Source of the DNA: an uncultured Chloroflexia bacterium
Lineage (GTDB): Bacteria > Chloroflexota > Ktedonobacteria > Ktedonobacterales > JADMIN01
Assembly: GCA_963718915.1 (NCBI GenBank)
Contig: CAVRAI010000015.1
Span: forward strand, 420,001-452,000
Direction: 5' to 3'
DNA length: 32,000 bases
Shown: positions 10,657-32,000 of the stretch, one piece after another
How the letters are laid out: each line of letters begins with the position of its first letter
Numbering within the stretch: the stretch's first letter is position 1
The notes under the pieces: generated by a model
What the model was told of the DNA's origin: nothing
The model's input: only the letters and a program-made list of their open reading frames with translations
Databases searched by the model: none
Made by a program: the position numbers and the translations under genes

Positions 10657-10667
10657 GACGGCTGGCT

Positions 10668-10722
10668 GGCGGCTGAAGCCGCGCCTAAGCGCCTTCGGCG
10701 GCAAAGCCCGCCTGCGCGGGCT
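10668..10722 (+). repeat. REP-like two-hairpin module, copy 1
   Basis: GCGGC-TGAA-GCCGC (10669-10682) and AGCCCGC-CTGC-GCGGGCT (10705-10722). It overlaps the last codons of the transposase ORF. Confidence 0.8.
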
Positions 10723-11140
10723 GAAAATCGGGGAGATGCTCCCACTCAGGTTGAAGAGTATTGGCAGCGTGGTGCTCACGTTGGTGAGCAATGTAAGCGC
10801 TCACCTCGGGGAGAGAACCTGGGCTAACAGAACCAGCGCCATAGGCACCCTGCCACTTGAAGAAACCATGTGTAGGATGCGCTTCATGCGTGGCGAGATG
10901 AGACGATGCGCCTTTCACCTGACGAACGAACTCGGCGAGCGAGATGGTCGCAGGCAATCCAACCAAGAGATGCACATGATCCTCAACGCCACCCAAGGCT
11001 ACCAACTTGCCACCAAGCTCAGCGCATTTGGCGGCAATCGCACGATGTGTTCGCCGCTCGAGTTCTCCTAAAAGCAATGGCAGGCGATCCCAGGTAGCCC
11101 ATACAATATGTATGTAGATTGCTGTACCTGCTTGACGCAT
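10685..11140 (-). mobile_element. HUH/Y1 tyrosine transposase, IS200-like fold, REP-associated (RAYT-like)
   Basis: YIHIVWATWDRLPLL N-terminal block, HUH motif in EDHVHLLV, and the catalytic-Tyr block SAYIAHQREHH (Y-x-x-x-Q). No tnpB partner. Flanked by inverted hairpin modules. Confidence 0.85.
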
Positions 11141-11164
11141 ATGGTGTCCCTTCGCTCGCGTTTC

Positions 11165-11223
11165 AGCCCGCGCAGGCGGGCTTAGCGGCCAACGGCCCCT
11201 AGGCGCGACTTTAGTCGCCTGCC
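11165..11223 (-). repeat. REP-like two-hairpin module, copy 2 (inverted relative to copy 1)
   Basis: AGCCCGC-GCAG-GCGGGCT (11165-11182), then GCGAC-TTTA-GTCGC (11205-11218) and the conserved CCTGCC tail. Confidence 0.8.
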
Positions 11224-11226
11224 ACC

Positions 11227-11484
11227 TCAGAAGTCATCATCAATCCGCCTTCTTGGCTCTACAGGGCGCTTGAAATACAAAGTCGTGGCTCCCCCCGTTG
11301 AAGTTGCAACTGATGTGACCCCAACGAGCTCCCATCCAGTATTTCCCAAACCTGCCATCGCGACATCACCCGCCTTGCCTATAGTGCGCACAATCTTCCC
11401 AGAACCCCCGTAATAGTTCAGCATCCAATCATTGAATTGAGCATCCCCTTGCAAAGATAGCGTGCAATACTCCCATTGCTGCAT
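11227..11484 (-). CDS. DUF4177-like small protein (85 aa)
   Basis: GGGAGG then 4 nt then ATG. MQQWEYCTL...GNTGWELVGVTS...TLYFKRP resembles the DUF4177 pattern (N-terminal WEY..., central GWELV, C-terminal FKR). Visibly AT-richer than its neighbours. Confidence 0.55.
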   Translation of the reverse strand: MQQWEYCTLSLQGDAQFNDWMLNYYGGSGKIVRTIGKAGDVAMAGLGNTGWELVGVTSVATSTGGATTLYFKRPVEPRRRIDDDF

Positions 11485-11587
11485 ATTACCTCCCTGGAAT
11501 GCCAACTTTTCATTGCTGTCGACCAATGCCGATTTGTTGGTGTCTATTATCGCTGCCAGCAACCCATATGGCAAGGAGGCAAATTTT

Positions 11588-11656
11588 AGCCCGCGCAGGC
11601 GGGCTTTGCGGCCGCAGCGGAGCGGAGGCCCATAGGCGCGGCTTCAGCCGCCTGCC
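11588..11656 (-). repeat. REP-like two-hairpin module, copy 3 (same orientation as copy 2)
   Basis: AGCCCGC-GCAG-GCGGGCT (11588-11605) ... GCGGC-TTCA-GCCGC (11637-11650) and a CCTGCC tail. Confidence 0.8.
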
Positions 11657-11672
11657 AACTCGGAAAACACAG

Positions 11673-28342: not shown

Positions 28343-30646
28343 CTATGGCTCGTCTGGGGTGGGCTGGTAGTCGCGCATGCTCCAGAACGAGCCGCTGCTC
28401 GGTTGATCGTCATCCTCAGCAGGGTTCGGCAGATCGTCCTCCGCCGAAGGGACGGGATAGAGGTCGAGACGACGCATCCGACGGCGCGGAGCCAGCCATG
28501 GCGCGCTGCTGAGCGGGCGCGAGAACGGCGCTGGTGGTGGCGTATCGCGCTCGACCAGCAGCGTTGGAATGGGAATGAGCCGCGGGGTAATCGATGGCGA
28601 CTGGCTCTCACTCTGGTCGGTCAGATCAAGCCGTGGCGCGCGCAGCAGCGCAACGAGATCGTCAATCGCAGTGCCGGTGTGGCCCGGCCATTCCGGCTCC
28701 ATGCCAAGCCACTGGCGTTCCACGGCGCGGATGACAACACGAAGAGCGCCCTCCAGCCGCAAGCGCTCTTCGCGGTCGCGCTGGAGCACCTCCAGCCGTG
28801 AGGCGGTATCCAGGATGGTCTCCGCAAGCAGCCGATACATGCCCTCGGTGGGAATGGTGGCGATGCCGTGTCCTTTGAGGGCCTGGAGGAGCGCCGATTC
28901 GAGCTTGCCGGTATCGTCCTGCACCTCCTGGCGGAACTGCGTCACCAGATTACGCAGCACATCGGCCTCGTGGCGCCGTGCCCGCGCGATGGCTAGGGCG
29001 CGCTCGCGGCCAGCCTGGATCGCCAGCAGGAGCCACAAGATCCCCAGCAGTCCCACGACAATACAGACGACATCCAGCACCACGGTTGTCGTTGGGTCAA
29101 GTGCGACGACGGAGTTGATGCCGATGCTAACATATAGCCCCGCGAAGATGGCATAGATGGTCAGCGCCCCAATGGCCAGCACGCTGGCAAGCGAGGCGCC
29201 GCCCAGCAGCAGCATGATCGCGATAAGCGTCGGGGCGAGTGCGAGGAGCGACGGACGCGGTCCAAGCACCATCATGGCCCACGCCAGCAGTCCAAGCTGG
29301 GAGACCAGCAGCGCCTGGGGCGCGAAGCGCTTCAGCGTAGCAGATTCGACCAATAGATAGGCGCCCATGCCGCCAAGGCCCGCGATCAGCACGCCCACCA
29401 GCGCCCATGTCCCTGGCGCGCTCGGTTCGCCGTTCAGGCCATACAACGCCGCGAGTAGTCCCAGCATCGCCGCTACGCAGACATGGCAGACAATAACTGG
29501 CATAAGCAGGTCTGCTGGCGGCAACGGCTGCGGGCGATTTCTGCTCTTGCGGCGCATCGGCCAGGGAAGGTAGGGCATGCGGGGATCGTTTTCCCAGACA
29601 AGGTCGGGCGCGGATGTCGATTTGCGACGCCGGTTGCTATACCGGGCGGAAACCGGGCGGGTAATGAAACTCGTCTGTTGCGGGGCTTTATTGGCGTCTG
29701 CCTCATGCTCCTGGCGTTCCTGATGCTCCCGCGCCTCCTGAGCGTTTGCTTGCGCCGCTTGGGCCGCCTGTGCCGCAAGCCTGCTACGCCGCTGCCGCTG
29801 TCGTGTTGCGTTCATGGGAGCATCCGCACGCGATGTGTCCTTCGCGACGGTGGACGCTTCCACGTCGTGCGCTGCGCCCCCCGCCGTATCTGGGATGTCA
29901 GGCGTGGCATCCGATGCCGTATCTGATGGCGGCGGCTGATCCACCGGAGCTGTGTCATCACGCTGTAAGTGCGCCATCACCGCGAGTGTGGGCATGCGCC
30001 GACCCGTCGCCGGAGCCACGGGCGCATCTTCGGCAATGTGTTCCTCGCTGGTTTCTGTGCCATTGTCCCCGGTCACGGCTTCTGGCGTCAGGCCATCCTG
30101 TGCCGCCACTGCCGGTTTGTCGTGTTCAGATCGCTCGGCTGGTTCAATCGGTTCAGTTGGTACAGTTGGTTCAGTCGGCTCCTCCGGGACTTCTGGCGCC
30201 TCAGGAATCTCAGGAATCTCTGGCTGGGGCGCATCCGGCATCTGAGCAATTATGGGCGCTTCGAGGCTCACGACCTCATTGGCCGATGCTTTCGCCGGAG
30301 TCGGCTCTGTCGTTGGCGTCGCGGCGCGCGCCCTGGTTGTTGTCTTCTTAGGTGTCGCCTTACGCCCGGCCATTGTGGAAGGAGCGGAGGCTTTGCGCGC
30401 GGTGGTTTTCGGCGCGGATGCCGTGGATGCCGTGGATGTTGAGGTAGTCACCGATTCGGCGGTCGTTGGTTTGCTGGTTGGGGCGATAAGCTGGGGCGAC
30501 CGCGACGCTCCGCGCCTCTTGCGCGCGTTCGATGGGGTCGCTGCCGTGCCACCTGCGCCGTTTGTGGAAGGTTTTTGTCCCTTCCGTGGTGTCGTCGACG
30601 CCGGGCGACTCTCACTCGGCTTGCCGTCGTGTCGCTGCCTGCTCAT
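28343..30646 (-). CDS. hypothetical 767-aa protein: ~390-aa disordered N-terminus, ~6 TM core, helical C-terminal region
   Basis: Single long ORF with GGGAG upstream of the ATG. Contains a PEIPEIPEAPEVPEEPTEPTVPTEPIEP repeat, an STSTASTAS tract and AQAAQAAQA. No domain recognised. Confidence 0.6.
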   Translation of the reverse strand: MSRQRHDGKPSESRPASTTPRKGQKPSTNGAGGTAATPSNARKRRGASRSPQLIAPTSKPTTAESVTTSTSTASTASAPKTTARKASAPSTMAGRKATPKKTTTRARAATPTTEPTPAKASANEVVSLEAPIIAQMPDAPQPEIPEIPEAPEVPEEPTEPTVPTEPIEPAERSEHDKPAVAAQDGLTPEAVTGDNGTETSEEHIAEDAPVAPATGRRMPTLAVMAHLQRDDTAPVDQPPPSDTASDATPDIPDTAGGAAHDVEASTVAKDTSRADAPMNATRQRQRRSRLAAQAAQAAQANAQEAREHQERQEHEADANKAPQQTSFITRPVSARYSNRRRKSTSAPDLVWENDPRMPYLPWPMRRKSRNRPQPLPPADLLMPVIVCHVCVAAMLGLLAALYGLNGEPSAPGTWALVGVLIAGLGGMGAYLLVESATLKRFAPQALLVSQLGLLAWAMMVLGPRPSLLALAPTLIAIMLLLGGASLASVLAIGALTIYAIFAGLYVSIGINSVVALDPTTTVVLDVVCIVVGLLGILWLLLAIQAGRERALAIARARRHEADVLRNLVTQFRQEVQDDTGKLESALLQALKGHGIATIPTEGMYRLLAETILDTASRLEVLQRDREERLRLEGALRVVIRAVERQWLGMEPEWPGHTGTAIDDLVALLRAPRLDLTDQSESQSPSITPRLIPIPTLLVERDTPPPAPFSRPLSSAPWLAPRRRMRRLDLYPVPSAEDDLPNPAEDDDQPSSGSFWSMRDYQPTPDEP

Positions 30647-30913
30647 CCTGCTCCCGCCTGTCCCTGCAAGCTACGGATGCGTCGACCTGGACCGCCCCGC
30701 ATCCTGCATTAGAACCACTTCCACCCCACCCCGCCGCGAGAACTGTGCCAGCACCGTCTGGCGCTACGAGCGCCGCCCCACCTTGACAGTGATTTCTGTC
30801 TATGCGATAGTGATATCTGGCAGTATGCCGTGTTGGCTTTATTCGGCGCTTACCATCGCATCGCCACACAGTATACGTACCAGGCATTATAACACCAACA
30901 GACTTGCTTGTTA

Positions 30914-31212
30914 CGGCACTGACGGAACGAGTAGGCGCGCCGAGCGTATTCTCAGAGAGTCCGGGGCTGGTGAGACCGGATAGCGCTGGCGCCCGAAAAT
31001 CAATCCTGAGCCGCCACCCGACTCTCCGCTGTGTGAGGGCAGGCGTGGCCGGAATCCCGTCCGTTATCATACGGGGGGACATGTACACGTGTCCCAATTG
31101 AGCGGATTGCTGCGCGCGCTCATCTATGTAAACGAACGAGCGGCCACAGCAGTCATTTCGGGTGGTACCGCGAGAGATGCTCTCGCCCCGTTGGGGTGAG
31201 GGCCTTTTTTAT
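30914..31212 (+). promoter_or_regulatory. T-box riboswitch leader (transcription attenuation type)
   Basis: Elements occur in canonical order: K-turn, AGUA/GAA S-turn, AGAGA bulge, distal loop GGCUGGUGAGA, F-box CCGUUA (31061-66) and T-box CGGGUGGUACCGCG (31159-72). Antiterminator and terminator structures compete. Details are in the findings. Confidence 0.85.
31180..31210 (+). terminator. T-box terminator helix with U-tract
   Basis: CUCUCGCCCC (31180-89) pairs with GGGGUGAGGG (31193-202), with a 3-nt loop, then CC and UUUUUU (31205-10). Confidence 0.8.
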
Positions 31213-31288
31213 TGTGCGCGCTAACGAGCGTTCCAGTCACCGCGACGATGAAGATGCTGGCTGAGACCAGGAAGGCGGGGAATTAGCG

Positions 31289-32000
31289 ATGGACGTGCAA
31301 TCTCCAACAACATTATTGCTCTACGCGACCGATAGCTATCTGAGCGGGTTCACGGCGCAGGTTGTCGCGACCGATGGGAGGAGCGTGGCGCTCGACCAGA
31401 CCGCCTTCTATCCCGGCGGGGGCGGCCAGATGGCCGACCGTGGCAAGCTGATACTGCTGACCGATGGGCGTCGTCTCGCCGTGGCGGGATTGAGCAAGCG
31501 CGACGGTGTCGTCTGGCACGAGCTGGCCGAGGACGCGGGCGAGCCGCCCGCCGTTGGCGCGAGTGGTCGCTGGGGAGATTGATTGGCCCTTCCGCTTTCA
31601 CATGATGCGCACGCATACCGCGCTTCACCTGCTCTGCGGCCTGATCTTTCGCGAATATGGCGCGCAGGTGACCGGCGGACAGATGTACCCCGACCGGGCG
31701 CGGATGGACTTCGCCCTCGGCACGATGACACCGGACTTCCTGCATGGCATCGAGCGGAGCGTCAATGAGGCGGTCGCGGCGGATCATCCCATTAAGGTCT
31801 ATGAATTGCCCCGTGATGAAGCGCTGCAAATTCCCGATTTGATACGTACCAAGATTAATCTGCTGCCGCCAGAGATTACCAGGATCCGCATCGTCGAGAT
31901 CGTCGGTGTGGATCTGCAAGCGGACGGCGGCACACACGTTCATAGCACGCGCGAGGTAGGTGGCATCAAGGTGCTGCGAACCGAGAATAAAGGCAAAGAA
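31289..32000 (+). pseudogene. AlaX-family (tRNA_SAD, HxxxH) trans-editing protein, interrupted by an apparent frameshift; 3' end outside the window
   Basis: The N-terminal part (31289-31582) reads ...LDQTAFYPGGGGQMADRG.... The continuation is in another frame: ...VVAGEIDWPFRFHMMRTHTALHLLCG...QADGGTHVHSTREVGGIKVL.... The two frames overlap only between 31494 and 31582. Confidence 0.75.

Follow-up and report, generated by a model that had tools for sequence, protein, structure and literature searches.

Organization of the locus

The window analysed here is a 32,000-nt stretch of DNA from a Ktedonobacterales (Chloroflexota) genome, and the leader and genes described below lie on its + strand. 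A complete T-box leader, composed of Stem I, Stem II, Stem IIA/F-box, Stem III and an antiterminator/terminator, occupies positions 30910-31210, as delimited with Rfam RF00230 and homologous leaders. It is preceded by a sigma-70-like promoter (30783-30811) and followed by an alaXM-type gene (31289-32000), which the end of the window cuts approximately 40 nt, or about 12 codons, before its stop codon. In related genomes, the next gene is ileS, encoding isoleucyl-tRNA synthetase (IleRS).

The putative promoter comprises the -35 hexamer TTGACA (30783-88), a 17-nt spacer with TG and the -10 hexamer GATAGT (30806-11), i.e., 10 of 12 matches with an extended -10 TG, and transcription is predicted to start at about 30818. 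The arrangement TTGACA-N17-TGn-nAnAnT recurs in 39 of 71 related loci, where a median of 81 nt separates the end of the -10 element from the downstream Stem I. In the window and its relatives, the promoter is found ~80-115 nt upstream of Stem I. The 5′ leader before the T-box is unusually long in the window (~96 nt) and contains a small hairpin (30818-30830).

RF00230 matches positions 30910-31193 over its full length (model positions 1-219), with 85.7 bits and E = 4e-19 when the local region is searched in E-value mode. This score falls under the gathering cut-off of the family, which is 93 bits, and no T-box is listed when the entire window is scanned with Rfam at its default gathering threshold. 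The Rfam search that an earlier sequence-only reading of this DNA had proposed as a check thus returns a significant full-length match, but one that is absent from a default scan. Large insertions in the segment that links the F-box to the T-box sequence are the likely reason for the low score. Orthologous leaders from Thermosporothrix hazakensis (123.4 bits) and Tengunoibacter tsumagoiensis (116.2 bits) both exceed the cut-off, while others score 77-85 bits. The T-box element, described from the letters alone as a complete transcriptional T-box, is confirmed as real, complete and conserved, with a set of motifs far beyond what chance would produce.

In this GC-rich DNA, long open reading frames overlap the leader, at 30252-30983 on the + strand and 30612-31097 on the - strand of the window, and at 148-888 in one related locus (L002). 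One such leader-overlapping frame is annotated as a 246-aa gene in public metagenome data, which masks the riboswitch.

Stem I and the specifier codon

Stem I (30914-31013) was delineated from the sequence, the Rfam alignment and a covariance model of Stem I, termed R1. It opens with a K-turn, in which CGGC (30914-17) pairs with GCCG (31010-13), ACU (30918-20) is bulged and GA (30921-22) faces GA (31008-09); of the four base pairs of this C-stem, only the inner two are kept in relatives. The K-turn is followed by a short helix (GGA 30924-26 with UCC 31004-06), the S-turn of the specifier loop (AGUA 30930-33 opposite GAA 30995-97), a GC-rich middle helix (30934-46 with 30984-94), the AG bulge AGAGA (30954-58) and a 6-bp distal helix (30959-64 with 30976-81), which includes UCCGG/CCGGA and closes the distal loop GGCUGGUGAGA (30965-75). 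Apart from the short GGA/UCC helix, these elements, together with the F-box, the hairpin at 31076-95 and the T-box sequence described below, had been located correctly in the sequence-only reading.

Among 72 distinct orthologous Stem I sequences, GA, GGA, GUA, GAA, AUC and GAGC are invariant, as are AG-GA and G-UG in the AG bulge and distal loop, so that the motifs of the tRNA-elbow platform are present. The K-turn GA motif, the S-turn AGUA/GAA and the succession of codon, one nucleotide and helix that define a Stem I are likewise found.

The R1 model was used to realign 83 related leaders. In this alignment, which is fitted to the model, Stem I partners pair in 84.9% of cells, compared with 24-42% when partners are slid. 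Compensatory changes, a further check proposed at the outset for Stem I and the antiterminator, are indeed observed: both sides have changed in 20 of the 25 Stem I pairs, and the distal helix shows compensatory changes in five of its six pairs. The covariation score reaches 0.370, against 0.151 in shuffled alignments, and none of 500 shuffles attains the observed value. Duplex energies of the middle-helix arms provide an independent, alignment-free check, with -13.2 kcal/mol for arms paired with their own partner and -9.0 kcal/mol with foreign partners. RNAalifold applied to a plain MAFFT alignment of Stem I recovered the distal helix alone because the variable middle helix was misaligned, and this analysis was set aside.

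The specifier codon, which the sequence-only reading had left unnamed, is AUC (Ile) at 30999-31001, on the 3′ side of the specifier loop in the context GAA-A-AUC-A-A, immediately before the UCC strand and at the canonical codon position of the Rfam alignment; it is not an Ala, Ser or Gly codon. All 83 related leaders (72 distinct sequences of Stem I) carry AUC, whereas any of A, G, C and U occurs at the position separating it from GAA. The base 3′ of AUC is usually A, and the next one pairs across the loop in about two-thirds of the leaders (GC in 39, AU in 11 and CG in 2 of 80 cells). This pairing places AUC at the canonical position, in which a single nucleotide separates the codon from the helix; TBDB assigns specifiers by this geometry.

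The antiterminator/terminator switch

Downstream of Stem I, Stem II (31014-19 with 31042-48) and Stem IIA with the F-box CCGUUA (31061-66), located within 31014-31066, are supported by the Rfam alignment and the sequence. They are followed by an 8-bp hairpin, GGGACAUG-UACA-CGUGUCCC (31076-31095), which sits in an insertion relative to the Rfam consensus, and by a long Stem III (31105-31155), in which GAUUGCUG (31105-12) pairs with CAGCAGUC (31148-55) around an internal hairpin. The antiterminator (31159-31190) begins with the 14-nt T-box sequence CGGGUGGUACCGCG (31159-72) and is formed by pairing of 31159-62 with 31187-90 and of 31170-76 with 31180-86, leaving the 7-nt bulge UGGUACC. The intrinsic terminator (31179-31210) consists of an 11-bp stem (31179-89 with 31193-203), a 3-nt loop and a U6 tract (31205-10). 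The competition between these two structures had been recognised beforehand, with a terminator stem shorter by one base pair (10 bp). The leader thus combines a T-box sequence carrying a UGGN bulge with a competing terminator and U-tract.

Both helices are conserved. Across 76 related sequences, the antiterminator is paired in 92.7% of cells, compared with 49-59% when slid, and the terminator in 91.5%, compared with 45-59%. Since they share positions 31179-90, the two structures are mutually exclusive. Calculated free energies are -14.4 kcal/mol for the antiterminator and -20.7 kcal/mol for the terminator; the greater stability of the latter fits a default-off switch in which tRNA would be needed to stabilise the antiterminator.

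Within the antiterminator of related leaders, GGGUGGUA is invariant. The UGGU of the bulge (31163-66) is complementary to the tRNA 3′ ACCA end and is also invariant in all related leaders, which predicts a tRNA with an A73 discriminator. A73 is the discriminator of bacterial tRNA-Ile, whereas bacterial tRNA-Ser normally carries G73. No tRNA-Ile gene, in which the anticodon and A73 could be checked, was found in the window or in the related loci.

The alaXM-type gene

The first gene downstream had been assigned to the AlaX family, and Pfam and NCBIfam refine this assignment to the AlaXM type. Its product matches PF07973 (tRNA_SAD) and the C-terminal end of PF01411 (AlaRS C-terminal core). Homologs are 245-254 aa long, those with names coming from Ktedonobacterales metagenome-assembled genomes (MAGs). 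The domain make-up is that of AlaX-M proteins, with an editing core and an N-terminal domain in ~250 aa and neither a catalytic nor a C-Ala domain. A frame-repaired query lacking the C-terminus scores 262.2 bits with the NCBIfam AlaXM model (NF040865), below the equivalog cut-off of 300. The first zinc motif, HTALH (HxxxH), is present, but the second reads DGGTH instead of CxxxH in 85 of 85 Ktedonobacterial sequences, so that the usual pair of zinc motifs is incomplete. In the window, the motif QADGGTH is encoded at 31913-31933, and Asp replaces the CxxxH Cys in every locus from L001 to L084. All solved AlaRS/AlaX homologs among the alignments listed have Cys at this position. The Asp variant is common, being found in 98 of the 150 nearest 50%-identity cluster representatives. 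This frequency rules out the Asp-for-Cys exchange as a Ktedonobacterial peculiarity tied to linkage with ileS, as does the Asp form in genomes in which alaXM lies away from ileS.

The reading frame of alaXM is disrupted in the window. DNA alignment with eight relatives reveals a 1-nt insertion near 31563-65 (GCGAGTGGTC versus GCGA-CGGTC), which shifts the frame and leads to a premature TGA at 31580-82, while the conserved sequence continues in another frame. The extra base is absent from all eight relatives, and the change is not a conserved programmed frameshift. The insertion reflects either recent pseudogenisation or an assembly error. In the former case, the locus would be decaying in this genome, with alaXM a pseudogene and the leader now effectively serving ileS only; if the frameshift is real, the operon is partly decayed here. 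The extra base and the stop that it creates favour such a decay. However, the sequence beyond the shift is well conserved in frame, with 92% identity to the best homolog (P0001) after repair of the query, which suggests that the change is very recent or stems from an error in sequencing or assembly. The state of other assemblies bears on this judgement: ileS is split into several short open reading frames in two related loci (L003 4566-8026 and L088 5226-8610, on contigs named contig_NNNN), which indicates that some public assemblies in the clade are prone to indels. The leader itself is intact. Altogether, decay of the locus appears possible, though we regard it as unlikely.

Gene order in related genomes

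Related loci were collected by scanning one genome per species, which yielded 80 further loci, all from Ktedonobacteria and including the cultured Tengunoibacter, Dictyobacter and Thermosporothrix, for a total of 84. In 82 of the 84 loci, alaXM is preceded by a leader homologous to 30900-31215; in the other two, fewer than 220 nt of sequence are available upstream. The gene order downstream is just as constant: ileS follows alaXM on the same strand in 83 of the 84 loci, and the contig of the remaining one ends too early. In contigs carrying the close homologs, this second gene encodes 1134 aa, overlaps alaXM by 4 nt and is identified as ileS by TIGR00392 of NCBIfam (708.7 bits, cut-off 621.4). 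The spacing between alaXM and ileS has a median of ~68 nt over the loci. Apparent in-frame fusions of alaXM and ileS in L049 and L058 proved to be tblastn artefacts across a stop codon.

The association extends beyond Ktedonobacterales. A profile built from more distant AlaXM proteins retrieved three Anaerolineae-type loci (L085 3048-8573, annotated as Anaerolineae; L088 3168-8610; L090 3059-8579) with the order T-box(AUC)-DUF6687-alaXM-ileS, in which the T-box was detected by Rfam or R1 and the specifier reads GAA-N-AUC-C. Neither a T-box nor ileS was found near alaXM in four other loci (a Clostridia isolate, an Armatimonadota MAG and two more MAGs, one annotated as Chloroflexi). The T-box-alaXM-ileS association thus appears to be a trait of Chloroflexota, shared by at least two of their classes. 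The DUF6687 protein of the three Anaerolineae-type loci is ~326-334 aa long and belongs to an uncharacterised family, which would thereby also come under predicted tRNA-Ile control.

The specifier AUC matches the second gene, ileS, in 83 of the 84 Ktedonobacterales loci and in the three Anaerolineae-type loci; this agreement between codon and downstream gene is observed in relatives, as ileS falls outside the window. From the spacing of the two genes, we infer that alaXM and ileS would be transcribed together, and ileS is expected to follow alaXM in the present genome as well, just beyond the window. The leader is therefore best interpreted as a conventional Ile T-box whose regulatory target would be ileS, with alaXM as a co-transcribed passenger forming the first cistron. 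Very probably, it is a canonical transcription-attenuating T-box specific for tRNA-Ile that controls a two-gene alaXM-ileS operon.

The sequence-only reading had arrived at another target, a free-standing AlaX-type editing gene, and considered this control to be novel unless a conventional T-box target turned up in the same operon. The Ile specifier and the position of ileS as the next gene in all 83 loci with enough downstream DNA do not support a T-box dedicated to such a gene, and the presence of a conventional one in the same operon of relatives removes the novelty. The proposed link between tRNA charging and trans-editing capacity survives in a reduced form: expression of AlaXM is predicted to depend on tRNA-Ile charging, but as a passenger transcribed along with ileS.

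The placement of alaXM between an Ile T-box and ileS, kept in at least two classes of Chloroflexota, could mean that AlaXM is more than a passenger and is functionally coupled to IleRS, the Asp variant perhaps clearing a mis-acylated tRNA that becomes problematic when tRNA-Ile charging drops and IleRS is induced. We consider this coupling improbable. Compensation by AlaXM for an editing-defective IleRS was rejected at the motif level, since the partner IleRS retains intact CP1 motifs (WTTTPWTLPAN and GTGIVHMAPGCGRED); conservation of these editing motifs leaves no sequence evidence that AlaXM replaces a lost IleRS editing function. If the coupling existed, AlaXM would provide the first case of a tRNA-sensing riboswitch governing the expression of an editing factor of the AlaX family.

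A T-box dedicated to alaXM, with ileS transcribed separately from an internal promoter, would agree with alaXM being the first gene downstream of the leader, and with the spacers of ~100-240 nt, a few of them with T-runs, that precede ileS in more distant relatives. Such an arrangement is nevertheless very unlikely. The Ile specifier fits ileS and corresponds to no AlaX substrate, and the 4-nt overlap in the closest relatives ties the two genes together. A scan of two loci (L078 and L054) revealed no terminator-like site between alaXM and ileS. Rfam and R1 detect one T-box only per related locus, and none ahead of ileS in the loci checked. Moreover, the linkage holds in two Chloroflexota classes.

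Least credible, and scarcely tenable, is a +1 reading of the specifier as UCA (Ser), or a reading in both frames, by which tRNA-Ser would be sensed in keeping with Ser-tRNA(Ala) as the substrate of AlaX: most leaders do read UCA, the exceptions (UCG, UCC and UCU) are also Ser codons, and TBDB permits +1 frames as well as a G:U wobble with the discriminator base, but T-boxes in general have a purine after the codon, which makes UCA automatic, the cross-loop pairing of the following base marks AUC as canonical, as in the Rfam alignment, UGGU is a Watson-Crick match to A73 (Ile), the variable third codon position would need different isoacceptors in different species, and the operon contains ileS.

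Proposed mechanism

With an Ile T-box acting on alaXM-ileS as the preferred reading, regulation can be envisaged as follows. Transcription would start near 30818 from the sigma-70-type promoter. Stem I of the nascent leader would bind tRNA-Ile, the anticodon GAU pairing with AUC (30999-31001) and the AG bulge and distal loop receiving the tRNA elbow. When tRNA-Ile is uncharged, its 3′ ACCA end would pair with UGGU (31163-66) and stabilise the weaker antiterminator (31159-90), so that RNA polymerase would read through alaXM and then ileS. With charged tRNA-Ile, the stronger terminator (31179-31203, then U6) would form instead, and transcription would end. The AlaX-type gene would thus be induced along with IleRS on falling tRNA-Ile charging.

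Comparison with known systems

As an RNA, the leader brings no novelty to the T-box field. It is a textbook example for Ile, from a phylum with known ileS T-boxes. ileS is the most widespread T-box target, Chloroflexi included (PMC2494555). The transcriptional ileS T-boxes of Staphylococcus aureus, Bacillus and the Chloroflexi member Dehalococcoides (PMC2494555) have the same full Stem I with K-turn, S-turn, AG bulge and distal loop, and share with the present leader Stem II, Stem IIA/F-box, Stem III, the 14-nt T-box sequence and a competing antiterminator/terminator with U-tract, as well as the AUC specifier, UGGU and the presence of ileS in the controlled operon. The present system differs from them in having an AlaXM-type gene between the leader and ileS, plus DUF6687 in the Anaerolineae-type loci, in a GC-rich leader whose extra hairpins lower the Rfam score, and in the ~96 nt of 5′ leader before Stem I. 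Ile specificity, the ileS target and a high-GC non-Firmicute lineage are features in common with actinobacterial ileS T-boxes. The latter have a truncated Stem I, whereas Stem I is full-length in the window leader and the terminator is of the classical kind, with a U-tract ~78 nt before the start codon. The actinobacterial elements, such as those of Nocardia farcinica and Mycobacterium, act at the translational level by sequestering the ribosome-binding site (TBDB preprint, 10.1101/2020.06.17.157016).

T-box operons in which the synthetase gene comes second are also on record, for the cysteinyl- and asparaginyl-tRNA ligase genes (PMC2494555). Their layout is the one found here, with a non-synthetase gene between the T-box and the synthetase and co-regulation by the cognate tRNA. 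In those operons, the first gene belongs to the same amino-acid pathway, e.g., cysE, whereas here it encodes an AlaRS-related editing-domain protein with no evident isoleucine link. AlaX-M proteins, such as Pyrococcus horikoshii AlaX-M (PDB 2E1B) and the members of NF040865, likewise have ~250 aa, an AlaRS-related N-terminal beta-barrel-like region and an editing core with the HxxxH motif and the tRNA_SAD domain. The window protein departs from them in remaining under the NCBIfam equivalog cut-off (262 versus 300), in carrying Asp for the CxxxH Cys and in being encoded inside an ileS operon.

What remains unusual is the apparent co-regulation of an AlaX-type gene with IleRS, conserved across Chloroflexota. 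Searches of the literature for a T-box together with AlaX, trans-editing or an editing protein returned nothing relevant. The conserved order T-box(Ile)-alaXM-ileS predicts that an AlaX-family protein is systematically co-expressed with IleRS in response to tRNA-Ile charging, and this linkage offers a testable lead on the role of the poorly characterised Asp-variant AlaXM proteins. The gene order also matters for annotation. Pipelines that read only the first downstream gene would label such leaders as alanyl-tRNA editing T-boxes with a seemingly mismatched specifier; TBDB looks only 500 nt downstream.

Other repeated elements in the window

Elsewhere in the window, three elements of ~65-80 nt (10663-10726, 11161-11232 and 11584-11665), each made of two GC-rich palindromes, are irregularly spaced and do not all have the same orientation. 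Rfam reported 'CRISPR-DR28' matches for two of the three, and the elements resemble REP- or MITE-like intergenic repeats rather than a CRISPR array.
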